Origin: a virus | Length of the DNA stretch: 64,000 nucleotides | Direction: 5' to 3' (one strand) | Virus record (IMG/VR): IMGVR_UViG_3300026484_000333 | Span: 1-64,000 of that record | In this document: piece after piece, positions 5,317 to 52,385 of the stretch | Layout of the letters: each line of letters opens with the position of its first letter | Numbering within the stretch: the stretch's first letter is position 1 | The notes under the pieces: generated by a model | What the model saw: only the letters and a program-made list of their open reading frames with translations | Told to the model about the DNA's origin: nothing | Database searches by the model: none | Made by a program: the position numbers and the translations under genes

Positions 5317-5542
5317 TGTGAAACTCCTTAAATAAAGAAACAAGCTTTTTGTGTTCAGTTTTTACTTCTTCATAATTTTTTGAAGCAATAGTTATTGTAT
5401 TGCCTCCTCTTAAATAAACATCAAAATAAAAAGATTGTTCTAATAAAACTACTCCTAAATGCCTTTTCTCATTTATCTTAAAAATATCTGAAAAACCTTG
5501 TATATCTTCTTTATTTATATAATAATCCCCAATTTTAACCAT
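5309..5542 (-). CDS. Hypothetical protein
   Basis: Translationally coupled between sbcD and sbcC. Confidence 0.7.
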   Translation of the reverse strand: MVKIGDYYINKEDIQGFSDIFKINEKRHLGVVLLEQSFYFDVYLRGGNTITIASKNYEEVKTEHKKLVSLFKEFHNV

Positions 5543-6543
5543 TATAAATCCTTTTCAATTAATTCAAGCTCATTAATAATTTCTTTTTTAAGTTCTTCAT
5601 CTTCCACTATTAAATGTTTTTTTACAATATCAGTTATAACTATTTGTTTATCATTATTTTTAATTTCTGAAATAACTTCTTTTTTTTCATTTTCAATCTC
5701 ATTAATATTTATAAAGGAATATCTTACAATTTTATCTCTATTATTTTCAATAAACTCAATTAGTTTGTCTGTTTTAATAGCTGAAACAACTTTAAAAACA
5801 TCTTTTTTATTCTGTTCTAAAATTAACTTTAATTTATCAATATCTTTTTCTCCTCTTATTGTAAATTTTACTAAATTAGGTAAATTTAATTGTTTCCATT
5901 TTACTTCGTAGTTTTTGTTCTCTACATTTAAAACTATATACCCAAAATCTTCTCTATCATCAAAAACAATTGAATAAGGACTTGAAGTATATTCTATATT
6001 AACAGCAGGTTTGTAATGTTGATGAATATCAGAAAGAATAGTGTAGTCAAAAGTCTTACTTACATAAACATTATCTATTTCATCAGTCATATAAGCATTA
6101 ACAGCACTTCTGTAATGAGAAAATAAAATATTAATATCAGTAAAAAACTCATTTTTAAGTTTATAAATTTCAAAAATTTTGTGATGAGAAACAAACCAAA
6201 GAGTTATATCATTTGTAATCCTCAAAAAACCTTTACCAACATATTCAAAATCTGTTTGAGGTAAATAATCATATAAACATTCATTTTTTGCCAAATCTTC
6301 GTGATTACCGCTAATTAAAACTATTTTATTTTTTACAAATTTCCTAATTCTACCAAGCCACTCATAGAATTTTTTTAATTCATACCAGCTTGGGTTTGCT
6401 TTATCTAAAATATCTCCATTTAAAATTAAAATATCAGGATTTTCTTTTTTTATAACTTGAACTAAATTGAAAAACCTACGTTCATAAAAATCATTAGGCT
6501 CTTTAATTTTTAAATGAATATCACCAAAAACAACTATTTTCAT
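5542..6543 (-). CDS. sbcD: SbcD/Mre11/gp47-like nuclease
   Basis: GDIH, NGDILD, SGNHE, SDIH motifs; upstream of sbcC. Confidence 0.92.
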   Translation of the reverse strand: MKIVVFGDIHLKIKEPNDFYERRFFNLVQVIKKENPDILILNGDILDKANPSWYELKKFYEWLGRIRKFVKNKIVLISGNHEDLAKNECLYDYLPQTDFEYVGKGFLRITNDITLWFVSHHKIFEIYKLKNEFFTDINILFSHYRSAVNAYMTDEIDNVYVSKTFDYTILSDIHQHYKPAVNIEYTSSPYSIVFDDREDFGYIVLNVENKNYEVKWKQLNLPNLVKFTIRGEKDIDKLKLILEQNKKDVFKVVSAIKTDKLIEFIENNRDKIVRYSFININEIENEKKEVISEIKNNDKQIVITDIVKKHLIVEDEELKKEIINELELIEKDL

Positions 6544-6606
6544 TATAATTTCCTTTTTAATAAATTATAACAAAAATAGTTGAAAAAAGAAAGGAAAAAG
6601 AAGAAA

Positions 6607-7413
6607 TTAATAGGAAGTTTCCAAATCGTCATCATCCTCTTGCTCTGCAACTTCTTTTTCCGTTTCACTTGCTTTTGTTGGAGCTTTTGTTTTTACACCT
6701 GTTGATTCAACCCACTCATCCCATTTTTTAATAAGAGGAATTGTATCTTTAATTTTTGCTTGAAGCTCTTTTGCTTTTAAAGGCTCAATTTTTTCAATAT
6801 CATAAACCCAAATTGCTCTACCGTTTGTTACCTCTTTTCTTGTTTTTACATAAACATAGTATTTTAGAGGTAAATGGTCATCTCCTATCAACTCTTTTAC
6901 TTGCTCCCAAAATTTCATATAATTTACACCACGCAAATAAATCAAATAAGGATTTTCTTTTCCGTCTTCCTCAATTGTTACAAGTAAGATTTGATTGAAT
7001 GTTAATTTAACGCCCTTATCTTTTAAAGCACCTACTTTTTCGCCTGTTTTAGTTTCAACTACTTCTTTGCCTTCCATAATATTTGTAAATACAGGAGTTA
7101 TATGGCTATAACCATTTTTGGTAATATCATAAGCACTGTATTGGTAACCAACTGCAATAATTCTCATTTTAACAGGTTGTTTAAACACTTTTCCTTGTTT
7201 TTTAACTTCAAGGGTTTTTCTATCAATTTCCCAACCCGTAATAATTTCACCTTTTTTTACACCTTCATTGATAAGCACATCGTCTTTGTCATAGTTGATT
7301 TTTACAACATCAAATGGTAATCCACCACTTGTTTGCTCACCGCCTGTATTTTTTGCAATTAATCTTGCTTCTTCAGGGCTAACACCCATTGCTACTAATT
7401 CTTCGTAAGTCAT
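6607..7413 (-). CDS. Probable single-stranded DNA-binding protein
   Basis: Acidic tail EQEDDDDLETSY; position before sbcD/sbcC as for T5 D11. Confidence 0.6.
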   Translation of the reverse strand: MTYEELVAMGVSPEEARLIAKNTGGEQTSGGLPFDVVKINYDKDDVLINEGVKKGEIITGWEIDRKTLEVKKQGKVFKQPVKMRIIAVGYQYSAYDITKNGYSHITPVFTNIMEGKEVVETKTGEKVGALKDKGVKLTFNQILLVTIEEDGKENPYLIYLRGVNYMKFWEQVKELIGDDHLPLKYYVYVKTRKEVTNGRAIWVYDIEKIEPLKAKELQAKIKDTIPLIKKWDEWVESTGVKTKAPTKASETEKEVAEQEDDDDLETSY

Positions 7414-8022: not shown

Positions 8023-9870
8023 TTATTTTACTTTCTCATAATATCTCAAAGTTTCTTCCTGTTGTCTTGCTTTACTAAATGAACTAACTCTTTTTAGATA
8101 ACCTATAACCCTTGTAGCCCAATCAACGTTTTTACTGCCACATACAGGACATTTATGGTAAGTTCTTTTGTCAATATGACCACAATCATTACAAATTGTA
8201 ATTTTTACATTATAAGTCCAATAATTACAACCTACTTTTCCAGCTACATTCATTAACTTTTTATATGATTCTTTTGTAGGATAATCAGCAAGATTCAAAT
8301 GAACTGCTTGTCCTCCATCCAAATAACGACTTGTTTCTTTACCGTGTAACTCTAATCTATCAAGAGCTGATAATGAATCATCTTCTGGTGCATAAATATA
8401 ACTTGAATATAAATTTCTCCAATTTGGTACCCAATAACCGTCTTCTTTATCCCACTTATAATTCTTAACTGCAAGATTTTCTGCTGGAACAAACTCGGTA
8501 TTAAACTTCACACCATAAATTTTTCTTGCTTTTTTATTTTCATTTGAAAAAGTTTTTAACACATCAGAAACCCATTTCATATACTTTTCGTTAGGGCTTA
8601 TTTCAAACCCCATAAACTCACTTGCCTCAACCAAACCATTTATGCCCAAAGTACTAAATTGTTTATCAAGAGTAATAAATCCAGCGTCATAGACAGGTAA
8701 CATTTTATTTTCATAATACCATTCTACAACTTTTCTATAACTATATTGATATTTATGAACTTTTTGTATATTTTCTTTTAAATAATCCAAAATTAATTCA
8801 TAATTTTCCTTTGGATTTTTTATATTATACTTCTTAATTGCGTCTTGAATTAATCTGTTTAGATTTAAAGTCATAACTCCAACACTTCCTGTTTGGACAC
8901 CTCCCGCACCTAATGTATAAGAAAATTCATTTTTCTGCTCTTCATCAATTTCATTTTTAAGCCTACAACAAGAACTTAAAGCTGAAACATCTTTATCCAT
9001 AAATAAAAAGAAACTATTACCTTTTGACATTTCTTCTGCAATAAAATCTTCATAATCTTTATCTTTTAATTCTCCGTTTTCGTCAATTAACAAAGCAACA
9101 GTTACAACAGGGAAAGTTAAAATTGCTTTTTTTCTTTCTTCATTAAACCATTGCATAAAGAATTTTTGTAGTTTGTCTACAGTTTCCCATTTTGGTTTTG
9201 ACATATCTGGGAAAACAAAATTACCAAACATTCCCTCAAAATAATGCTTATCATAAATACTAATATTCCAAAAAACACTTTGGTAATTTCTTGCAGAAGC
9301 TGGTTGGTTTATAGAATAAACCACTTGTTGAAAAGACTGTTCAATTGTTTTTTTATGTGTCTCTAAATAATTATCTCCATAATCTTTTCTGGCAAAATAA
9401 TCCATATACATCAACCACTCAACCGTAGCTACCGCACCTGCAAATTGAGAAGAAACTGCAAAAACAAAATTTATAAAACTCCCATTAAAACTTAAAAGAT
9501 GTTTAGGGGCTTTTGACTCTCCTCCTAATTTTGTAGTTCCATCTGTTAAAAGAGGATACATCGAAACTGATACGCAATAAGGTTTAAGAGATGTTTCATC
9601 GTGTTTATATATTTCGTGATTTTCTAATTGTCTAATATACTCTTGTGCCAACTCCTCACCAAAAATCTCTTTTATTTTTTCAACCAAAATTCTTCTGTTT
9701 AGTTGAATATTGAAATCTTTCCAAATTTCAGCTTCAAGAGTTGCTATATTCTTACTGTCAACATTAGCATTAGCATCAAATTTGCTTCCTTCTGCTGGAT
9801 TTTCTGCCTCAATATATTTATGAATAAATTTAACTTTTTCTTGTAGCTGTTTTTCATTTAATCTTGTCAT
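8023..9870 (-). CDS. nrdD: Class III anaerobic ribonucleotide reductase
   Basis: TFPV, SSCCRL, PAENL, CNDC/CPVC zinc site, glycyl-radical motif RVIGYL. Confidence 0.96.
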   Translation of the reverse strand: MTRLNEKQLQEKVKFIHKYIEAENPAEGSKFDANANVDSKNIATLEAEIWKDFNIQLNRRILVEKIKEIFGEELAQEYIRQLENHEIYKHDETSLKPYCVSVSMYPLLTDGTTKLGGESKAPKHLLSFNGSFINFVFAVSSQFAGAVATVEWLMYMDYFARKDYGDNYLETHKKTIEQSFQQVVYSINQPASARNYQSVFWNISIYDKHYFEGMFGNFVFPDMSKPKWETVDKLQKFFMQWFNEERKKAILTFPVVTVALLIDENGELKDKDYEDFIAEEMSKGNSFFLFMDKDVSALSSCCRLKNEIDEEQKNEFSYTLGAGGVQTGSVGVMTLNLNRLIQDAIKKYNIKNPKENYELILDYLKENIQKVHKYQYSYRKVVEWYYENKMLPVYDAGFITLDKQFSTLGINGLVEASEFMGFEISPNEKYMKWVSDVLKTFSNENKKARKIYGVKFNTEFVPAENLAVKNYKWDKEDGYWVPNWRNLYSSYIYAPEDDSLSALDRLELHGKETSRYLDGGQAVHLNLADYPTKESYKKLMNVAGKVGCNYWTYNVKITICNDCGHIDKRTYHKCPVCGSKNVDWATRVIGYLKRVSSFSKARQQEETLRYYEKVK

Positions 9871-16059: not shown

Positions 16060-16710
16060 CTATCCTTTAGTATATAGACCTAATTTTTCATAGTGTGCAA
16101 CTGTTATTTCTCTAAAATTAAAATTCACTTTTCCACGAAATAAATCAATAAATTCAAAAGTCAAATCATCTCTGCCTAATCTTCCTAAATGCGAAAAACA
16201 AATATTTTTACAATTTTCCTTTGTTAAATCTACAGGTAACGGGTCTTCTAAAATTATCTTTCCCATCTTTTTATAAGTAATTTCATTTGAATAAGCCTCG
16301 TCAACAGCTTTTATAATTTTTGTTATAAAACTTATTTCAGGAATATAAATGAAAACAGGACGCAAAGGAAGAACGTGGTTTAGTATAGGCATTTCTACCC
16401 TTAATGTTGTACTTCCTACATTAGCATTTTCTAATAAAATTATTTCATTAACATAACTATAAAACCAGAATAAGCTATTCATACCTTTCATTTGCAGAAA
16501 AAATTTTCTAATATTATCCATTTCTTCATAAGTATCAAATTTTATATCAACATTAGTTGTATAATACTCACTTTCATTATACAAATAATAATTATAATTA
16601 TAAGGTTTTCCTAAAATAATTCTATTGTGTGATATAGAATTATTTATTTTATCTAAAGGTAAAAACTCAAAAGGAAAAAGAGGATAACTTTTATATTCTA
16701 TTAAACTCAT
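16060..16710 (-). CDS. Putative distal tail-like protein
   Basis: FF..MKG...FW motif; tail-tip operon position. Confidence 0.55.
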   Translation of the reverse strand: MSLIEYKSYPLFPFEFLPLDKINNSISHNRIILGKPYNYNYYLYNESEYYTTNVDIKFDTYEEMDNIRKFFLQMKGMNSLFWFYSYVNEIILLENANVGSTTLRVEMPILNHVLPLRPVFIYIPEISFITKIIKAVDEAYSNEITYKKMGKIILEDPLPVDLTKENCKNICFSHLGRLGRDDLTFEFIDLFRGKVNFNFREITVAHYEKLGLYTKG

Positions 16711-17951
16711 ATCAACCCTTTAATAGGATTTACCGAACTCAAAAGCACATTATAATTATTATCATTATTATCTCTGTCTATAGAAGAATTAGATTTTTTC
16801 ATAACTTCAATTGCAGGAACAACTATTTGCCCTTTTTCATATAAAATTAATCCGTCAATTTCAATCATATTTGGCGGAATTATATTTTTAACATCTAGTA
16901 TGTATGCTTTAGTCTCGTCTTCAATTAAAAATACTTTGTTAAACTCTAATGTTTTTGGTATTTTTTCAACTTTTATTATACTAGTTCTTCCCGTTTTAAT
17001 AATTGTTTTTGTTGCTTCAGACCATAAAGGGAAATAATTTAAAAATCTTTCTGTTAGTATGTTAACATTCTCTAAAAATTTATGCTTATATAATTCCAAG
17101 GAAGTAAAAGAGGCATTAAAATTTATTTTTGGATTTTCCATTGTTAAATAAGAAGTTTCAACACCATTAATACTTTTAAAAAGTAAAGTATTAAAAAAGT
17201 AAGTTTCTGAATAAGTATTTTTATCAGGATACAAAACAAAACTGTTTGCCATAGGCATTCTTTTCAAATATATTTGGTACTTAATATAAAATTCTTTACC
17301 TCCAACAGAAACTTTAATTCCAACCCACCAACCATCTACAAATTGATATAAACTATTAACATCTACTACTAATTTAAAGCATAATTTGCCTCCCGCTGGA
17401 ATGACATCTCCCACTTCAATATCTTCAAATTCAATACCAAATAAAGAGTTTAATTCTAAAATTTCTACATCCTCGTTATAACTAGAAATTAAACAATAAT
17501 CAATTATAATTTTATTATAAACCGATGGATTAAAATAAAAAAAGGTAGTGGCATTTTCCCAGAAAGTATTTTGAGAATTATTATAAACCAACCAAAGTAG
17601 TTTATCAGTAAAAACTTTTGCTTTTCCTTCTGTACATTTACCTTCATTTTTACTAATACCAAAATTTTGTAAAAGAAACTTGTTGCCACTGAAGATTATA
17701 GGTTTTGTTTTTTGGGGAAAAACAATATCTTCAATAAAATAATTAACATAATAAGAACAACCTTGCTGAATACTTTTATTATTACAGAAAACAGTATTTT
17801 GGTTATACGCAGAAAAAGCTTTTAAGACTAAATAAGAAACATTTTCATTAATCTGCTCTGTTTCATTATTATAAACTCTTGCTTTTATGGGAACATAATT
17901 CTTATCTAGTATAGAGGCTTGTTCTTGGACATATTTATAAATTGTTCCCAT
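16707..17951 (-). CDS. Tail structural protein; N-half is a paralog of 30095-31084
   Basis: MGTIYKYVQEQ versus MATIYKYIQEQ; similarity runs to IYLKR/LCLKR. Confidence 0.7.
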   Translation of the reverse strand: MGTIYKYVQEQASILDKNYVPIKARVYNNETEQINENVSYLVLKAFSAYNQNTVFCNNKSIQQGCSYYVNYFIEDIVFPQKTKPIIFSGNKFLLQNFGISKNEGKCTEGKAKVFTDKLLWLVYNNSQNTFWENATTFFYFNPSVYNKIIIDYCLISSYNEDVEILELNSLFGIEFEDIEVGDVIPAGGKLCFKLVVDVNSLYQFVDGWWVGIKVSVGGKEFYIKYQIYLKRMPMANSFVLYPDKNTYSETYFFNTLLFKSINGVETSYLTMENPKINFNASFTSLELYKHKFLENVNILTERFLNYFPLWSEATKTIIKTGRTSIIKVEKIPKTLEFNKVFLIEDETKAYILDVKNIIPPNMIEIDGLILYEKGQIVVPAIEVMKKSNSSIDRDNNDNNYNVLLSSVNPIKGLI

Positions 17952-18960: not shown

Positions 18961-20853
18961 TTACTCCTCATTTAACTCTATAAGATAATTATATGGTGCT
19001 TTTATGTGGTTATCTGGAATAACTATATGTTTTACACCATCAATATAAACCTCTGTTTCAGGTTGAATATCCGTGAAATTAACTAAATACATCCATTTTG
19101 GACTACCAAAATTTATAACCTTCAAATCATCAGCAATATTCTTATATTTATTTACTTTAATAACAGAAACACTTTGATTATCGTTTTTAATCTCTTGCCA
19201 ATTACCCGACAAGGCACCATCAGAAACATAATTATTAACCCAAGAAGTTCCATTCCAAAAACTTGTATTTTTACTATACATTAAACCAAATCTAAAATCA
19301 TCATTATTTATATCATAAGCATTATTTCCTCCCCAACCTAAAGCAAAAGGTAAATCATAGGCTTTATCTCCTTCTCCCCAACCAAAATAAAATATTTGAT
19401 AAGTTGGGTCATCAACAATAGTTGGGTCATATTTTTTTAATACAACTAAAATATCTGCTCCGTTAGTAATATACCAATATTTTTCAATCATTTCATCTTG
19501 CTTTCCCCAATAAAATTGAGGCATATAAAAAGACATATTATCAATAAAAGGAATATCAGCATTATATTCCTCTATATAATTCCACTTATCAATACTAATA
19601 TCAAAAACACTTGAATTTAAAGACTGTATATAATCTTCTATTTTACTTAACAGTTCAATAGTATTATTAAAAGCTAACTCACCATCTTTTAATTGTAAAA
19701 AACCGTTTTTATTTGTTTGAAGAATTACATTTTTAATTAATCCTGTATTATTTAAAATAGAAACATAAAAATCATTTAATTCTTTTGGTGGAAAACCGTT
19801 TTCATTAAAACTATTAATTTCTTCTTCTGTTAAAATTCTATCCCAAATATAATAACCACTTGCATAAACAGGATTATCAATCTGTTTTCCAAATAATCCC
19901 TCAAAATTCTTCCATTTATCATTTTGTAAATTATCAACAACTTTTACACCATCAACATATACATTTAATTTTCCTTCTGTATTATTAATAGTAATAACCA
20001 ATGTAACAATACCCCTGCCTTCTACTATATCCATAATATTACATAGTATCACATCATCAAAATATAAATTACCATTGTTTAAATCTGTAAAAATAGACAT
20101 TGTTGTTTCATTTGTATAATAATCTGATGTATAATTATAAATAAACATTTTATTAATTTTACCTGAACAACGAGCTTTTACTAATTCAGAAAATTGAGCT
20201 GTTAAAACAATTGAAACATCACCATTTATCTTATGAGAGGAAGAAGATATTGAATTACACACAATTCTACTATTTAAATAAGGAGCAGTTCTTCCGTATG
20301 CATTATAATTCCCTCCTCCACAACCTGTGTTTCCTCCTCCTTCAAAAAATACTTTATCTTTCTTTTTAGCAAATCGATGTATATTTCCTCCAAACGAGAT
20401 AATATAAGTAAAATCCACATCATACCCATAACTTCCTTGTATCCAAGCTTTATTGTTTTCAATGGTATTTTCTAAATAATTTGCCAAAACCCTCATAGGT
20501 TTTGCACTACCCTTTTTCACATCAATTGTAACAATATCTCCGTCTTGCCAAGCATTATCTCCTTGTCTAATTGTAAAGCTAATAATGCCATTATCATAAG
20601 CTTGGTCAATTTGTGCATCATCTTTTGCCCCACTAACACTGCCTGTTACTTTAAAAACATCGTTAGTACCATCGTATCTTAATTCCCAAGTTTCTGTTTG
20701 AACTGTATTTTGATTAAAAGTAATATTTTCAATATTTCCATCACCTTGTGCTAAATCATAACTTGTTTCCATACTAACAGGGTTACTTAAAAATTCTACT
20801 AAATTATCAATAGCCTCTTTTACTGTCTTCTTGCACTCAACTCTATATGCCAT
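18961..20853 (-). CDS. Virion protein with tail-tube-like beta domain and LamG domain
   Basis: TETW..VTGSVSG..YDNGII module; LNVYVDG..YIWDRILTEEEI LamG signature. Confidence 0.7.
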   Translation of the reverse strand: MAYRVECKKTVKEAIDNLVEFLSNPVSMETSYDLAQGDGNIENITFNQNTVQTETWELRYDGTNDVFKVTGSVSGAKDDAQIDQAYDNGIISFTIRQGDNAWQDGDIVTIDVKKGSAKPMRVLANYLENTIENNKAWIQGSYGYDVDFTYIISFGGNIHRFAKKKDKVFFEGGGNTGCGGGNYNAYGRTAPYLNSRIVCNSISSSSHKINGDVSIVLTAQFSELVKARCSGKINKMFIYNYTSDYYTNETTMSIFTDLNNGNLYFDDVILCNIMDIVEGRGIVTLVITINNTEGKLNVYVDGVKVVDNLQNDKWKNFEGLFGKQIDNPVYASGYYIWDRILTEEEINSFNENGFPPKELNDFYVSILNNTGLIKNVILQTNKNGFLQLKDGELAFNNTIELLSKIEDYIQSLNSSVFDISIDKWNYIEEYNADIPFIDNMSFYMPQFYWGKQDEMIEKYWYITNGADILVVLKKYDPTIVDDPTYQIFYFGWGEGDKAYDLPFALGWGGNNAYDINNDDFRFGLMYSKNTSFWNGTSWVNNYVSDGALSGNWQEIKNDNQSVSVIKVNKYKNIADDLKVINFGSPKWMYLVNFTDIQPETEVYIDGVKHIVIPDNHIKAPYNYLIELNEE

Positions 20854-28710: not shown

Positions 28711-28734
28711 AGCACACAAAATTATTTGTGTGCT
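28711..28734 (-). terminator. Hairpin terminator at the end of the tail tube gene
   Basis: AGCACACAAA-atta-TTTGTGTGCT, followed by T-rich sequence on the minus strand. Confidence 0.6.
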
Positions 28735-30047
28735 AGATAAAATGCTTCACCTAAAACAGGATGTTCATATGCTTCAAACTCAAGTTTGTTAGCAAGAACA
28801 CCATCATCATCTTCAACACTAACACTTGTATATTTGATGTATGGTAACCAAATTGCAAATTTATGTTTTTGTGTTTCATCATCAGTTTCAGTTCTCATTT
28901 CAAGGAAAAACTCTGCTGTTTGATTGTTTTTAAATTTGTTAAGTTCATCCCAATTTTCAAAAGTAACAGTCATTGTTCCTTTGATTGTTTTTTTAGTAAT
29001 AATTTTTTTCATAATACCAGAAGAAGTAATTGCTTCTCTGTCAGATACCTGATTTTCAATAGTTATTTCGACATCTTTTCCTTCGTAAGTTTTATTATCA
29101 ACTGTTAAAATCGCATTTTTACCTACATAAGGAATTGTTGTTAAATATTGATTTGAAAGTAAAGGCTCATTTTCATTAGTTTCAAAAGAACTTGCTCCTA
29201 AATCAATTGACAATGTTGCAATATCAGCAACAGGGAAACTAAACTTAACTGAATTAGGAACTGCACCTTTTAGTGTTAGACTTCTACTATCAGTATCATC
29301 ACAACCATACATTAGTTTAACTGCTAATGACTGTTCCTCACCACAAGGTTTAGCAAGTTTGTAAAGGACTGCGTCCCCCTCTTCACCATCTTGAACTTCA
29401 TAAATTTTATATGCAACGTGTGAAACAACATCAATTGTGAATTTATCTCCTACTGCAAAATCAGTTGTACCACTCTCAATTTTAAACTTAATTATTCCAT
29501 TGTCATAATCTGTACTTGTTGTGGCGTCTTCTTTTGTACCACTAACACTACCTGTTACACTCCAAACTTCTGCACCAGCAGTGTCAGCATTTGTACATTC
29601 AATTGTCCAAGTTTCCGTTACTATAGTGTCCTCATTGTAACCAAAATTAGTTAAATTACCATCACCTGTATTACCACTATCAGCAGTAATTGTGCTTTCA
29701 ACTTGTGGAGCTGAATCTGCTCTAATAACTGCTCCTGTTCCTACTCCAGCCTCTTCTCTTATGCCAAGTGCTACTTCAAGAACAACATTACCTGCAAGGT
29801 CATTACTACCGTTTCCAAGTGGTATTAACTCAAAAGCAAGAGTACCGCTACCAAACTCTTTACCCGGTAATGCAGGGGCTGTAATGTAGGAATTTCTTAC
29901 AACTTTTCTTTCAATAACATCAATCTCTGGTTTTAACGCACTATCAGAGGTAACTTCAACTACATCATTGTCTGTAAAATTTCCTCCCTTGTTAAATTCC
30001 GCTTCCTTAATAACCGCATATAGCGTAGAAAGTGTTTTATATGCCAT
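28722..30047 (-). CDS. Major tail tube protein with inserted beta domain
   Basis: Phage_tube_2-like fold motifs; own late promoter and terminator; precedes the chaperones. Confidence 0.85.
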   Translation of the reverse strand: MAYKTLSTLYAVIKEAEFNKGGNFTDNDVVEVTSDSALKPEIDVIERKVVRNSYITAPALPGKEFGSGTLAFELIPLGNGSNDLAGNVVLEVALGIREEAGVGTGAVIRADSAPQVESTITADSGNTGDGNLTNFGYNEDTIVTETWTIECTNADTAGAEVWSVTGSVSGTKEDATTSTDYDNGIIKFKIESGTTDFAVGDKFTIDVVSHVAYKIYEVQDGEEGDAVLYKLAKPCGEEQSLAVKLMYGCDDTDSRSLTLKGAVPNSVKFSFPVADIATLSIDLGASSFETNENEPLLSNQYLTTIPYVGKNAILTVDNKTYEGKDVEITIENQVSDREAITSSGIMKKIITKKTIKGTMTVTFENWDELNKFKNNQTAEFFLEMRTETDDETQKHKFAIWLPYIKYTSVSVEDDDGVLANKLEFEAYEHPVLGEAFYLAHK

Positions 30048-30094
30048 TCTAATATCCTTTCAACAATATTCTTACAAAGATTATATCGGATTAT

Positions 30095-31084
30095 CTATTC
30101 TTCCGCTTCTATCACACCTTCTCCTGCAAATTTAATAGGACTTTGTGTTAAAGGATTTAATACTCTGTATTTGACATTTAATTTATCTAAATTATTTTCA
30201 TTAATTATTTTTGCGTCTATAATTTCTATTTCTGGTAACTCTAAACCAAAGCTAAATTGAACATTTTTATTATTAATTTCAAAAAACGAAACCTCTTTAT
30301 ATAATAATGAAATTTCCCCAACAGATAAAATACGATTAAAAAATCTTGTTTGGTCAAATAAAGTCTTTTGATAATTTCTATTGCCTGTAGGAGGGAGAAA
30401 AGTAAAGTTTCTTTTTAAACACAATCTATAAGAAATTTTTACACCGTTTTCAAATTCAATAGTCAATTTATTTTTATATAATTCTTTAACACCAAAAGGA
30501 TATAAAAATTTTACATTAAATAATTTGGTTTCATTTGGGGCTATTTCTTGTCCTATTTCTAAATCTATTATTTTAATACCATAAGTATTTAAAAATATAA
30601 TATCTTTAATTTTTAAATTTTCTTTATAACCATTTGTAAAGCCTAATTCTAATATTTTATTCTCATCATCAGTTAAATCAACATAAACCCAAAAATTATC
30701 ATTATATGGATTTTTTGCCCAGATTAAATTATTTTTGATTGATATGTCTTTAATATCATATTTATTATAGCTTTGTTTAGTATTATAAACATAAAATGAA
30801 GATTTAATATCTGTATAATATGCTTTTGGTTTGGATTTTTTTGGAAAAATAATATCCCCTGAAAAACTAATATCATTAAAATAAATACAAAAGTTTTTAT
30901 TAACAAAAGCACTATTACAATAATTCTTACTGCTTACTATACCTTTAATAGCTTGTTTAATAACAACAACAGAATTATCTGTAATTGATTCTTCTTCTGT
31001 ATAATATATTCTTAAAAGTATAGGGGTAAAACTTTTATCTCCTATATTTGTTTGTTCTTGTATATATTTATAAATCGTAGCCAT
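30095..31084 (-). CDS. Chimeric virion protein: paralog of the 16707-17951 N-half fused to LamG C-strands and a tail-tube C-terminus
   Basis: After LKRNFT comes FDQTRFFNRILSVGEISLLY (LamG end), then FGLELPEIEI, which resembles the tube segment FAIWLPYIKY. Confidence 0.7.
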   Translation of the reverse strand: MATIYKYIQEQTNIGDKSFTPILLRIYYTEEESITDNSVVVIKQAIKGIVSSKNYCNSAFVNKNFCIYFNDISFSGDIIFPKKSKPKAYYTDIKSSFYVYNTKQSYNKYDIKDISIKNNLIWAKNPYNDNFWVYVDLTDDENKILELGFTNGYKENLKIKDIIFLNTYGIKIIDLEIGQEIAPNETKLFNVKFLYPFGVKELYKNKLTIEFENGVKISYRLCLKRNFTFLPPTGNRNYQKTLFDQTRFFNRILSVGEISLLYKEVSFFEINNKNVQFSFGLELPEIEIIDAKIINENNLDKLNVKYRVLNPLTQSPIKFAGEGVIEAEE

Positions 31085-32805
31085 TAAACAATCCTTGTAA
31101 AGTTACCTATTTTAAATATCTTATCTGCTAAATCATTTTCTGGTAAATATCCCCATAATACTTTTAGACCGTTTAAATAAATTTCTACATAATTATTTTC
31201 TTTATCATAATTTAAAGCATAAAATATCCATTCTAATAAATTATATTGATTGTCTGTAATAGTTTTACCGTCTAAATACTCATAATTACCGTCTTTTAAC
31301 ATATAAAAATAAATTTTCCCATTTGGATGAATTCCTAAACCTATTCCATTATTTGCTTCATAATCACTAATAAGCAATCTTTCATAATCTTCTAAATAAA
31401 ACCAACCACTAACTGCAAAACTTGAATTTGGTGTAGGAACATTAGTTTTAACTCCTGAAAAATCTTCTAAAACAACTGCTTTATGTAAATAGCCATCTGT
31501 ATAATAACCTTGATACTCTGAATTAGTCCATTCCCCTAAATAAACTTCCTCTTCATCGTTTAAATTTTCTTCAAATCTAAATAACCCTATACAACTACCA
31601 TCACCAAAAATATCTTTTACTTTTTCAGTTCCATCTTGTTTATAATGCCCTACTAAAACATTTGAACTAATACCGTAATACAACGAAGCTACGTAATCAT
31701 TATCAAGAGCTTTTTGGATTAAATCAAAACATTTAATATCAGTTACAAATTCACCATAAGCAATTTTATCTACTACTTCAAAATCTTTTATACCTGTTTT
31801 ACTGTTTAAAGTATTTATTTCTTTTAATTTGTTTTCTAGAGTAAATTGGAATTTATCAACAAAAAACTTTTCCCCTTCAATAGAAAAACAACCCCATTGA
31901 GGATAAACTTCAGTTAAAAATACTTCTCTAAAAGGCTCTCTCAAAAAATTATCTTTATGAAAAATATAATTTGGAGATTTCAATTCAAAAGCAATTTCAG
32001 GAGATTTTTCAACACTAAAAGCCATTGTCATTTTAGAAACAATTGCTCTGTCTAATTCAATGGCACAAGTATCTTCCCCACAATAATAGCCCATTAATAA
32101 ATCAACTCTTGGTAATTCACTGCATTTCAGCGAAGGTTTATATAAAAAGGCACTTCCTAACTCCCCTCCTTGTACCTCATAAATCTGACAAGCCACATTA
32201 GAAGTTATATTTATTGTAAAATAATCGCCAACATTATATTCATACTCGTCTGAAATCAAAACTTTTATAATTTCATTAAAATATTCTTTTCCTGTTATGG
32301 CATTATGTTTCCAACCGCTTTCACTGCCGTAAACAGACCATTTTTTATCCCCTAAATATTCAAACGTCCAAAGTTCAGTTTTTATATTAAAAGCGACATA
32401 ATCTAATAATTGAACTTTTTTATTAATGCCTTCTATTGTATCACTCTCTACTTTATATTCAATTCTCGGATATTTACTTGCATTTAAAATTGCTCCGCTA
32501 CCAACTTGTGGTAATTCCATTTTCCCAAAAGCACTATAAAAAAGTTCATTATTTATATTTTTAAAAACTTTGCTATAAACAAAGGGCAATAAAGATGTTT
32601 TAATAACAGCAGTCCCGCTTATTTTACCAAGCACCCTTTTTTTATCAAAAAAATAAGTTTTACTTTTATTTCTGTCTATTTTTTCAAAGTCTATATTTAG
32701 TAAACTACCACTTTTGAACTCAATTAAATCATTAGGAACAAAATAATCATTATCAATGCTTCCACTTTTTTTAACCGCTATTATTTTAACATTTTCTTTT
32801 TTCAA
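31084..32805 (-). CDS. Tail tube paralog with LamG insertion, C-terminally interrupted
   Basis: Collinear with 28722-30047 (VGSGAIL, IYEVQGGE.G.A.LYK); LamG DIFGDGSCIGLFRF..IYLNG..KIGNFT, then stop. Confidence 0.75.
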   Translation of the reverse strand: MKKENVKIIAVKKSGSIDNDYFVPNDLIEFKSGSLLNIDFEKIDRNKSKTYFFDKKRVLGKISGTAVIKTSLLPFVYSKVFKNINNELFYSAFGKMELPQVGSGAILNASKYPRIEYKVESDTIEGINKKVQLLDYVAFNIKTELWTFEYLGDKKWSVYGSESGWKHNAITGKEYFNEIIKVLISDEYEYNVGDYFTINITSNVACQIYEVQGGELGSAFLYKPSLKCSELPRVDLLMGYYCGEDTCAIELDRAIVSKMTMAFSVEKSPEIAFELKSPNYIFHKDNFLREPFREVFLTEVYPQWGCFSIEGEKFFVDKFQFTLENKLKEINTLNSKTGIKDFEVVDKIAYGEFVTDIKCFDLIQKALDNDYVASLYYGISSNVLVGHYKQDGTEKVKDIFGDGSCIGLFRFEENLNDEEEVYLGEWTNSEYQGYYTDGYLHKAVVLEDFSGVKTNVPTPNSSFAVSGWFYLEDYERLLISDYEANNGIGLGIHPNGKIYFYMLKDGNYEYLDGKTITDNQYNLLEWIFYALNYDKENNYVEIYLNGLKVLWGYLPENDLADKIFKIGNFTRIV

Positions 32806-32807
32806 AA

Positions 32808-33215
32808 TTAAATCCTTTTTATATACCTAACTTCAATGTCTATTTTAGCAATAGCGTGAGGATGGACAACACCTCCTTCTCTTTTCATACTACTAACAGT
32901 CATATCAACAACACCCATAGGTTGCCATCTTATATCTTCTACAACCTCATACACAGCCTCAATCAAATCACTTAAAATATCCTCATACTGATTTCTTGCC
33001 TGTTTATTAAAAACATAAACACTTATATTTCCAACATAATAAGCTTTTCTATTTGTTAAATTATCCCTCTCTTTTTCTTCACTCTCATACATAACACTAA
33101 CAGCAGGAAACCTATCAATTTGAGTCCACAAAGGAACAATATTTTTATAAATTTTTACAAAAATATTCTTATCTCTTAAACCATCTATTAATTTTTCTAC
33201 AATTTCTTTTCTCAT
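32808..33215 (-). CDS. Tail terminator protein
   Basis: FPAVSV motif; position upstream of the tube genes. Confidence 0.7.
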   Translation of the reverse strand: MRKEIVEKLIDGLRDKNIFVKIYKNIVPLWTQIDRFPAVSVMYESEEKERDNLTNRKAYYVGNISVYVFNKQARNQYEDILSDLIEAVYEVVEDIRWQPMGVVDMTVSSMKREGGVVHPHAIAKIDIEVRYIKRI

Positions 33216-50889: not shown

Positions 50890-51408
50890 TTATTCCTCCC
50901 AATTTATAGCGTCAAGTTCTTCTAAACTTACCGCTTTTTTTGCTTTTTTTCTTAATGCTATTTTTTTATTCCATAATGTTGAATAATTAACACCAAGTTC
51001 TGTTAGCATTTTTTTAATTTCATCAACTTCTACTTCGTGGTCTTCATCATAAAAATCACCGACAATTGTTACTTTTAAACCTAAATCAAGTGCCAATTCA
51101 TATCCGGCTTTTAATTTTTGAATATCATCAAAATCTGCGTCCATTGTAATTCCATTTGAACAAGTAAAACCATTTTTTATAAAATAATTAAAAGCAGATT
51201 TTATTTCTTCAATTTTCAATTCTTTTGCTTTTTCTAAAATTAGTTCTTCATCAGGAATAATATTTCCATTTTCATCAAGTTTATAAAAAGGAAATCTTGC
51301 TTCTGGCAGTTTATTTGTTAAAACAAAACCTTCCCTATCTTTATAATCTTCTTCGTTTTCAACTTCAACAGGTATTAATCTTCTTTCTTCATTTATAAAA
51401 AATAACAT
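50890..51408 (-). CDS. Tail fibre assembly-like protein (DUF4376-like)
   Basis: AKELKIEEIK..A.SLEELDAINW; follows the fibre genes. Confidence 0.7.
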   Translation of the reverse strand: MLFFINEERRLIPVEVENEEDYKDREGFVLTNKLPEARFPFYKLDENGNIIPDEELILEKAKELKIEEIKSAFNYFIKNGFTCSNGITMDADFDDIQKLKAGYELALDLGLKVTIVGDFYDEDHEVEVDEIKKMLTELGVNYSTLWNKKIALRKKAKKAVSLEELDAINWEE

Positions 51409-52385
51409 TATTTTCCTCCTTCGGCTTGATAAATTAAATTAGCTTCGCTTTCTGTCAAGTTTCTTGTAAAAATTCTCAAATTATCAACTGCTCCTGCTTT
51501 TCTATAACCACTGCTTCTGCCCCAACCAAAAACGCATAGATAATTAGTAAAATACATATTATATTTTGCAATTTTACTGCAATTTTGTTTTAAAGTTTGT
51601 TTTTTTCCATTAATAAAAATATCACCATATTCAAATTTTCTAAAATTTACTGAAACGTGAATCCATTTATTTTTATATTTATTAATATCAACTCCAAAAT
51701 TATCGCCATTGGCGGAATTGAATCCAAGTTTTCCACTGCTACAAACATATAAATCGCAATTATAAAAGCCAATAGGCATTTGATAATTTACTCCATTCCA
51801 TTTAAACCAAAAGCTGATATTTAATTCTTTTGTATCTTTATTAAAAGGTAATTTATTAATTTTAAGCTGTCCTCCGTTAGAATAAACAGCTAATTTTTCT
51901 TTGCCTTCTACATATGTTATGCTTCCGCTTTTTGTAGCTTCATATTTTCCGCTTACATCAACCAAGCTACTATTAAATTTAAACAAGGCAATTCCGCTTT
52001 TATCATCAAAAAAATCAACTTTATCAGCTGGGGGAATATTCATAATTACCGTGCCTTTATCACCAATCCAAACATTATCATCTTTATCATTTTTTAAACA
52101 TTCAAATTTTTCTAAAGTTTTAATATTTAACCAAACAAAACCTTTAAATAAAGGATTGGTTGTTACCTGCGGATTATTTAAGCCGATAACATTTGCTATA
52201 TTTTTAGGAAATTTGTCAGCAATTTTTAATTTGCCTTGATTTATTAAATCACGAATTTTTTGATTTTCTACATTTTCTTTTAAAAAGCACTTATAAATAA
52301 AATTTTGTTTATCAACATTTAAAACTACAATTAAATCATCTTTTTTACCTGAAACTTTACTATCTAAATTTTCTACTAACATCAA
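51408..52385 (-). CDS. LamG/concanavalin-like fibre protein
   Basis: DFFDD.SGIALFKF, ISFWFK, WIHV, DNLRIFTRNLTESE. Confidence 0.8.
   Translation of the reverse strand: MMLVENLDSKVSGKKDDLIVVLNVDKQNFIYKCFLKENVENQKIRDLINQGKLKIADKFPKNIANVIGLNNPQVTTNPLFKGFVWLNIKTLEKFECLKNDKDDNVWIGDKGTVIMNIPPADKVDFFDDKSGIALFKFNSSLVDVSGKYEATKSGSITYVEGKEKLAVYSNGGQLKINKLPFNKDTKELNISFWFKWNGVNYQMPIGFYNCDLYVCSSGKLGFNSANGDNFGVDINKYKNKWIHVSVNFRKFEYGDIFINGKKQTLKQNCSKIAKYNMYFTNYLCVFGWGRSSGYRKAGAVDNLRIFTRNLTESEANLIYQAEGGK

Follow-up and report, generated by a model that had tools for sequence, protein, structure and literature searches.

How should a protein domain be read when it breaks off at the end of one phage gene and is finished in the next: as the remains of a dead gene, as a gene that can be switched, or as a protein made in two pieces? 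This question is raised by two adjacent open reading frames (ORFs), A and B, of the IMG/VR virus record IMGVR_UViG_3300026484_000333. The window, i.e. the whole stretch of DNA that was analysed, comprises positions 1 to 64,000 of this 83,931-bp record, which bears direct terminal repeats. Both ORFs lie on its minus strand, as do all the genes and gene parts given below. ORF A (31084–32805; 573 amino acids (aa), TTG start) is a tail-tube paralog whose LamG domain is broken off before its last strands, and ORF B (30095–31084; 329 aa) comes next. The data reported here suggest that A and B probably constitute an accessory tail-tube protein encoded by a gene in pieces, the two chains of which would be rebuilt into one subunit by strand complementation.

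A LamG domain divided between two adjacent ORFs

ORF A is related to the main tail-tube gene of the window (28722–30047; 441 aa), which serves as the full-length reference paralog and belongs to PF18906 (E = 4e-13). The two proteins share 28% identity over residues 22–335 of A (BLAST, E = 3e-33). Residues 19–382 of A (31660–32751) match positions 21–387 of a profile hidden Markov model (HMM) made from four tube sequences (124.9 bits). The last ~55 positions of this HMM are absent from A, so that the tube domain is incomplete in that chain. Residues 398–568 (31102–31614) match positions 1–171 of a 206-position LamG HMM (86.9 bits), built from 40 complete domains found among the LamG-containing matches of an exhaustive protein search. 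The Pfam family PF13385 (Laminin_G_3) is also matched in A (31.5 bits for a cut-off of 27.6), only over positions 12–102 of its 151-position profile, and A has no Pfam tube match at E <= 0.1. The protein ends in ...KIFKIGNFTRIV followed by the stop codon, i.e. in KIGNFTRIV.

The missing strands are found in B, residues 231–264 of which (30293–30394) match positions 173–206 of the LamG HMM (24.5 bits). When 695 bp are removed by an in-script join, A and B give a single in-frame product of 671 aa that matches positions 1–206 of the LamG HMM with 120.3 bits, against 86.9 bits for A alone. Joining A to shuffled B tails gave 86.9–89.5 bits (five of five), and joining it to regions of gp414, a gene of the tail-tip region (16707–17951), gave 87.0–87.2 bits (two of two). 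The remainder of B (residues 265–329; 30098–30292) is predicted, from the contacts of the complex model described below, to pack into the tube-like domain of A. Elsewhere in the window, outside the tail module, a 325-aa protein (51408–52385) carries a complete LamG domain (HMM positions 1–205, 93.3 bits) and provides an internal single-chain LamG reference.

The 695-bp insert (30410–31104) comprises one copy of an 8-bp direct repeat, three codons and the stop codon of A, a ribosome-binding site (RBS) AAGGA (31092–31096), an ATG and codons 1–225 of B. The repeat, GTAAAGTT, occurs at both 30402–30409 and 31097–31104 (AACTTTAC on the coding strand). Its first copy in the order of transcription (31097–31104) lies in the Asn-Phe-Thr codons at the end of A, and the other one (30402–30409) in the codons for Asn226-Phe-Thr of B, the junction codons being AAC TTT ACA (31096–31104) and AAC TTT ACT (30401–30409). 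Taken alone, the 8-mer is not rare, with three copies in the window versus 5.07 expected, and the 3.1-kb region contains 36 direct-repeat families at seed 8. In 200,000 trials, two 18–24-nt windows drawn at random from this region had an exact 8-mer in common in 0.8–1.8% of cases, and the placement of the repeat at both junctions is therefore mildly significant. It is plausibly a footprint of the splitting event, by target duplication or microhomology, and not a functional site. The 225-codon frame of the insert is open. With stops expected at 0.106 per codon from base composition, 225 codons would all be open by chance with a probability of about 1e-11; the other two frames contain 19 and 40 stops.

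Residues 1–225 of B (30410–31084) are fast-evolving and paralogous to the N-terminal half of gp414 (BLAST E = 1e-17; z = 21.9, a score reached by 0 of 1000 shuffles). From the RBS and ATG, where the likeness sets in, strong similarity extends to the Lys-Arg pair (KR) immediately before the repeat. Past the junction there is a marginal signal (z = 3.0–3.9, reached by 3–12 of 1000 shuffles), to which hhalign gives no support (E = 0.11). No Pfam or PHROG family matches B, its C-terminal part alone has no Pfam match at E <= 10, and a sequence search of the PDB returned no match for either A or B.

These results bear out most of the anatomy proposed in a sequence-only reading of the locus, which had described A as a tube paralog stopping in the middle of LamG, had recognized the missing LamG strands in the next ORF and the 8-bp repeats around 695 bp whose removal restores one frame of about 671 aa, and had seen in the insert an RBS followed by a diverged copy of the N-terminal half of the gp414 gene. 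Two of its claims stand only in part. The similarity to gp414 was said to end exactly at the repeat, which holds for its strong part, ending at the adjoining KR, and not for the marginal signal beyond. The C-terminus of the tube, also placed in B, agrees with the topology and with the complex model and not with the sequence comparisons given below.

An apparently old split, maintained by selection

Three A-type proteins are known in all (100, 78 and 38% identity). P0002 (573 aa) is an ortholog with 78% identity, and P0005 (569 aa), with 38% identity, aligns over residues 10–568 of A to its residues 12–565. All three end at position 171 of the LamG HMM, P0005 with the sequence ...IIGKVKKI. An exhaustive HMMER search of 1.84 billion representative proteins gave 35 matches at E <= 0.001, i.e. 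P0002, P0005, the tube family (P0006) and others mostly aligned to the LamG stretch of A alone; an unsplit tube plus LamG protein is not among them. A word search of 5.8 billion proteins with A, B and residues 226–329 of B returned two matches in each case, the query itself and the ortholog from G001, the genome that encodes P0002. Searches with A and with B by tblastn against phage GenBank records gave no match, scans of IMG/VR with A, P0005 and family alignments found only G001 and a phage lacking A and B, a scan of the Joint Genome Institute (JGI) metagenomes found only the G001 contig, and none was found in 185,579 species genomes.

In G001 (IMG/VR, 80,614 bp) the layout is the same as in the window: the tail terminator gene is followed by A', B' and then the tube gene. 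B' (325 aa) is 56% identical to B. The ATG of B overlaps the stop codon of A as TAATG, with AAGGA upstream, and both the overlap and the AAGGA box are kept in the two genomes for which DNA is available (the window and G001). This overlap suggests that A and B would be carried by one late mRNA, with probably coupled translation. Between 29900 and 33400, no terminator-like site was found and promoter-like sites occur at chance level (31 versus 24.4 expected, standard deviation 5.5).

Ratios of non-synonymous to synonymous substitution rates (dN/dS) were estimated by the Nei–Gojobori method between the window and G001 (dS ~0.7). They are 0.065 for the tube gene, 0.063 for the terminator gene and 0.19 for A (0.18 for its tube part, 0.21 for its LamG part). 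In B, the ratio is 0.25 for residues 227–329 and 0.73 for residues 1–226 (~0.9 for 1–130 and 0.48 for 130–226). The same rate profile is seen in gp414, with 0.58 and 0.44 in its N-terminal part and 0.205 in residues 232–330, its ortholog in the relative (L004:1501-2745) being 51% identical. Because A and the C-terminal part of B are under purifying selection and the frame of the insert is open, the old gene is being maintained in both its halves; like its paralog, the grafted domain evolves fast.

The shared end point of the three A-type proteins within LamG, the purifying selection and the lack of an unsplit form among the representative proteins searched indicate that the split is old and not a recent accident. 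In the sequence-only reading, the implication had been that a whole gene was interrupted fairly recently, and relaxed dN/dS was named as the sign of a dead insertion. Neither is borne out by the 35 matches, by the values for A and for the C-terminal part of B, or by the position of the break.

Presence or absence of the A+B pair

A and B form an optional cassette (30076–32806) between the tail terminator gene and the tail-tube gene. In the related phage L008 (IMGVR_UViG_3300026488_000026, positions 5478–7257), the terminator gene leads directly to a 441-aa tube gene after a 46-bp gap, and the last 115 residues of this tube protein are 98% identical to those of the window. Contigs from three runs of another study (X2, X3 and X4) join position 30075 to 32807 or 32812, skipping 2731–2736 bases. 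In run X4 the joint lacking the cassette has a depth of 96.8, and A/B pieces occur at low depth in X2–X4. The varying unit is thus the whole 2.7-kb A+B pair, which is either present or absent. That the pair is dispensable, as seen in L008 and in the contigs of the three runs, fits an accessory decoration. A joint corresponding to deletion of the 695 bp was not found in the contigs of four runs, which is weak evidence, as contigs drop rare variants.

Predicted complex of A with the C-terminal part of B

Full-length A (3-row alignment) was modelled together with residues 226–329 of B (2-row alignment). The interface score ipSAE (interaction prediction score from aligned errors) was 0.92, 0.94 and 0.92 in three runs, and the best of three controls gave 0.00. 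Among 80 solved complexes, 58 attain the mark used for this score, as do 2 of 110 mismatched pairs; these counts apply only roughly here, since alignments made for the present analysis were used for A and B. The runs share at least 89% of their contacts (435–445 contacts, on both the LamG and the tube parts of A), with a predicted local distance difference test score (pLDDT) of 80–82 for the partner. In the models, residues 242–250 of B pair with residues 404–409 and 463–470 of A, in the LamG stretch, and residues 264–328 of B contact residues 72–108, 207–226 and 347–394 of A, in the tube part. The pLDDT of A itself is 81–82 with the C-terminal part of B and 65–66 with unrelated partners.

A model for a two-chain tube protein

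What has been shown is how the locus is built, that this build is conserved, how selection acts on it and that the modelled complex scores strongly; together these results suggest a scenario whose steps, from the original insertion to binding of A and B, incorporation in the virion and a role in adhesion, we infer as follows. An ancestral tube paralog would have carried, ahead of its last strands, an inserted LamG domain. A loop of this LamG would then have been interrupted by a segment made of an RBS, a start codon and ~225 N-terminal codons of a tail gene of the gp414 type; this interruption probably left the 8-bp repeat as its footprint. In the present state, A stops three codons past the break and B begins on the overlapping TAATG. 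Alone, A would be incomplete in both its LamG sandwich and its tube fold. The C-terminal ~100 residues of B would complete LamG in trans with its final strands and would probably do the same for the tube. Both domains would thereby be rebuilt, and the fast-evolving N-terminal domain of B would be tied non-covalently to LamG. Most likely, the rebuilt subunit would then be built into the tail tube and decorate it as an optional adhesin, the LamG of which may bind carbohydrate.

If the chains do reassemble, the locus would be a natural case of the splitting of a structural gene that adds a domain: the insert would have become the head of the second fragment, kept on the virion only by the strands that finish two folds. 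New tail decorations, and with them new adsorption properties, could then evolve in a simple way that needs no covalent fusion, and A and B would be a pair already at hand for the docking of split proteins on phage tails. For those who annotate phage genomes, the lesson would be not to dismiss as pseudogenes neighbouring genes that end in truncated domains.

A tentative and rather doubtful extension is that the gp414-like family consists of plug-in tail proteins, each with a variable, outward N-terminal domain and a conserved strand tail of ~100 residues, gene fission having served as a docking device. In this joint proposal, B would complete A and gp414 would dock in a tail-tip protein by its 232–330 stretch; tail domains would then be swapped or added by a change of plug partner and not by gene fusion. 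The 232–330 stretch of gp414 is the one that shows the marginal similarity to the C-terminal part of B mentioned above, and it may be a docking tail too. As candidates for a truncated partner of gp414, gp630 and gp331 were tried and rejected: BLAST found nothing, and the C-terminal LamG-like match of gp630 reaches 6.4 bits. The 630-aa protein (18961–20853), encoded after the ORF of tape-measure size, has at residues 188–349 a weak, complete-looking LamG-like match (14.3 bits) ending in ...WDRILTEEEINSF. A small domain with the pattern TETW...V.GS.SG...Y.NGII.F.I...GD.FTI.V is shared by three tail proteins, namely the tube protein (residues ~140–210), A (~140–205) and gp630 (40–117; 20503–20736).

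Points against the two-chain reading

Several points weigh against a protein rebuilt from A and B. The evidence is computational throughout, and the score of the complex expresses the confidence of a model. Moreover, two halves of a known fold can pass such a test by their likeness to solved LamG structures, and the model speaks for compatibility and not for binding. Completion of the tube fold by the tail of B is presumed from topology and the complex model: this tail has no similarity to the C-terminus of the tube (z = 0.4–1.6; hhalign E = 0.36), and its gain with the tube HMM does not exceed that of 10 of 10 shuffles. The AlphaFold2 (AF2) models of the single chains are too poor for a check at the level of folds. 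That of A has a pLDDT of 46.4; that of B has 37.7, with only residues 143–222 exceeding 50 and residues 221–329 below it. The family of A-type proteins has only three members in the databases, and A is followed by B in two of them, P0005 being known as a protein (from a 6.35-kb ENA contig). As no unsplit ancestor was found, the insertion history is a reconstruction. Finally, the dN/dS of ~0.9 in the first 130 codons of B is compatible with little constraint there.

Searches with these poor AF2 models provide leads at most. With the model of A, Foldseek gave no match at E <= 0.001, and its top rows are tail tubes (P74-26 8ed0_A, 9jgh_K with E = 2.1e-3, T5, YSD1 and DT57C; template modelling (TM) scores of 0.16–0.38). 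With the model of B, the ESM Atlas gave rows at TM 0.32–0.40, many of them Ig-like, as a lead only; gp414 is placed there in unnamed phage clusters.

Alternative explanations

Among the other explanations, the one that survives best, although it appears unlikely, is that A and B are independent: B would be a gp414-like protein that keeps some LamG-derived residues, and A would work or idle in truncated form, with no reassembly. The whole of B can indeed be aligned loosely with residues 1–330 of gp414, and the marginal similarity past the junction points in the same direction, as do the fast N-terminal part and the conserved 232–330 stretch that gp414 has in common with B. However, hhalign does not support the similarity past the junction, and the LamG score gains 33 bits with B but nothing with the gp414 region. 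This explanation also has to account for a protein A that lacks strands of both folds and yet is under purifying selection, with the same truncation in all three members of its family, and for a complex model scoring 0.92 against 0.00 for the best control.

It is quite improbable that the locus is a dead insertion, i.e. a tube paralog killed by an illegitimate insertion and whose two ORFs are decaying. The dispensability of the cassette and the near-neutral rate of the first 130 codons of B would agree with decay, but two genomes at dS ~0.7 have kept both ORFs intact, A and the C-terminal part of B show the low ratios given above, the truncation point is identical at 38% identity, and 225 codons have remained open, against a chance of about 1e-11.

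Still less probable is an excisable cassette, proposed in the sequence-only reading as one of two outcomes, in which recombination at the 8-bp repeats would drop the 695 bp in some genomes to give a 671-aa chain and two types of tail. In the window, the repeats are exact and in frame at both junctions, a placement with a chance of 0.8–1.8%. In G001, the corresponding codons are AAT TTA GCA and AAT TAT GCT (L003 11710–11718 and 12388–12396). Two of the three differences between the 9-nt junction motifs of the window and G001 are identical in both copies (rough estimate, p ~0.05), which could be due to chance or could hint at concerted evolution. Against this, the G001 copies are only 6/8 identical, with at most four identical bases in a row, so that the DNA repeat is not maintained; P0005 ends differently (GKVKKI), the insert ends show no recombinase and no terminal inverted repeats, and the contigs of the four runs, to the limited extent that they would retain rare variants, contain no 695-bp joint. 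The other outcome proposed there, a split protein that reassembles, is the one favoured by each of the computational tests that were run, namely the conserved split, selection, the TAATG overlap with its RBS, and the complex model.

Recoding at the level of RNA or of the ribosome would also produce a single chain. In the bypass of gene 60 of phage T4, ribosomes cross ~50 nt between matched take-off and landing codons, with a stop right after the take-off site. Splicing of an intron, or a hop between the two Asn-Phe-Thr sites, is scarcely credible here: the junction codons are matched in the window, and Asn and Ala occur at both sites in G001, but the gap is 695 nt, the stop comes three codons after the site where ribosomes would take off, the coding frame of the insert is open and conserved, and no Rfam family, introns included, matches 29900–33000 at E <= 1.

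Other kinds of elements were considered and rejected. For a transposon, an insertion sequence or a miniature inverted-repeat transposable element, none of the 25 inverted repeats listed pairs the insert ends and no transposase family is present; the 8-bp direct repeat is. A self-splicing intron of group I or II finds no match in the same Rfam search. For an intein, only 3–5 residues of A follow the break, and no match to an intein family was obtained.

Genomic setting

The phage is uncultured. The window has a GC content of ~23–33%, and the sequencing run in which the phage is best represented is labelled as a hydrothermal vent metagenome. The structural genes are ordered, on the minus strand, as a head protein gene, the tail terminator gene, ORF A, ORF B and the tail-tube gene, followed by chaperone-like genes, a 1973-aa ORF of tape-measure size and tail-tip genes including gp414. 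The tail terminator gene (32808–33215), directly upstream of A, matches PF23818 (E = 6.9e-13) and phrog_3907. Residues 325–431 of the protein encoded by the tail-tube gene match the PDB entry 8xan_B, ‘Major tail structural protein’ (E = 0.007). Downstream of the tail module, 8023–9870 encodes an NrdD-like large subunit of anaerobic ribonucleotide reductase (phrog_25611, E = 2.9e-128).

Comparison with known systems

A search of the titles and abstracts of the open-access literature on tail tubes returned no split tail-tube gene, which does not prove that none has been described. Genes in pieces are nevertheless known, and split inteins are among them: Dassa and colleagues reportedly presented them in 2009, with ‘fractured genes’ in which a gene is divided into two ORFs whose products must rejoin. 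Unlike split inteins, A ends 3–5 residues past the break and the N-terminal part of B is gp414-like; protein splicing is not invoked here. A usual mark of genes in pieces, a pair of neighbouring ORFs equivalent to one single-chain gene or domain elsewhere, is found here at the level of the LamG domain. The other mark, a homing endonuclease or mobile gene between the pieces, is absent, the N-terminal part of B being a paralog of a tail gene.

A close case of this kind is the ribonucleotide reductase of phage Aeh1 (split nrdA; Friedrich et al. 2007, PNAS 104:6176, as cited in PMC10448857), whose halves are said, in the passage of the source that deals with it, to keep their function as two peptides (PMC10448857). 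As described in that passage, a phage gene is split there, as here, by inserted DNA into two adjacent ORFs. The insert of Aeh1 is a free-standing homing endonuclease gene that adds nothing to the protein, whereas the insert found here has no nuclease signature and encodes the domain with which the second fragment begins, so that a domain is grafted by the split. In contrast to the enzyme of Aeh1, the target would be a structural gene, with a predicted function.

Strand complementation between tail proteins has a parallel in the baseplate tripod of phage Tuc2009. According to the part of the source that treats this contact, a C-terminal beta-hairpin of BppU completes the beta-sheet of domain 2 of BppA and fastens a carbohydrate-binding accessory protein (PMC4742702). 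Likewise, strands of one tail protein would here complete the beta-sheet domain of another one. The hairpin of Tuc2009 has 25 residues in the part described and is seen in a crystal structure, whereas in the present case two domains would be completed together by ~100 residues, according to a predicted model. Furthermore, unlike what that part of the source describes for Tuc2009, the pieces found here trace to one domain family that is single-chain in its other members.

As decorations of siphophage tubes, the sections concerned of a third source mention TpeX, an extension of the major tail protein (MTP) of 936-group phages produced by programmed frameshift, and the adhesin domains of SPP1 and lambda (PMC6669499). 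A and B would resemble these decorations in that a tube-protein variant displays extra binding modules along the tube and that such modules are optional among close relatives. The modules of TpeX, SPP1 and lambda are, in those sections, covalent C-terminal extensions of one tube gene, whereas A is a separate paralog with an internal LamG, to which the split would attach a further domain non-covalently. The present locus differs from all these systems in two respects: the DNA that interrupts the gene encodes a domain of the second fragment and, if the predicted complex is correct, two folds would be completed by a single tail of ~100 residues.

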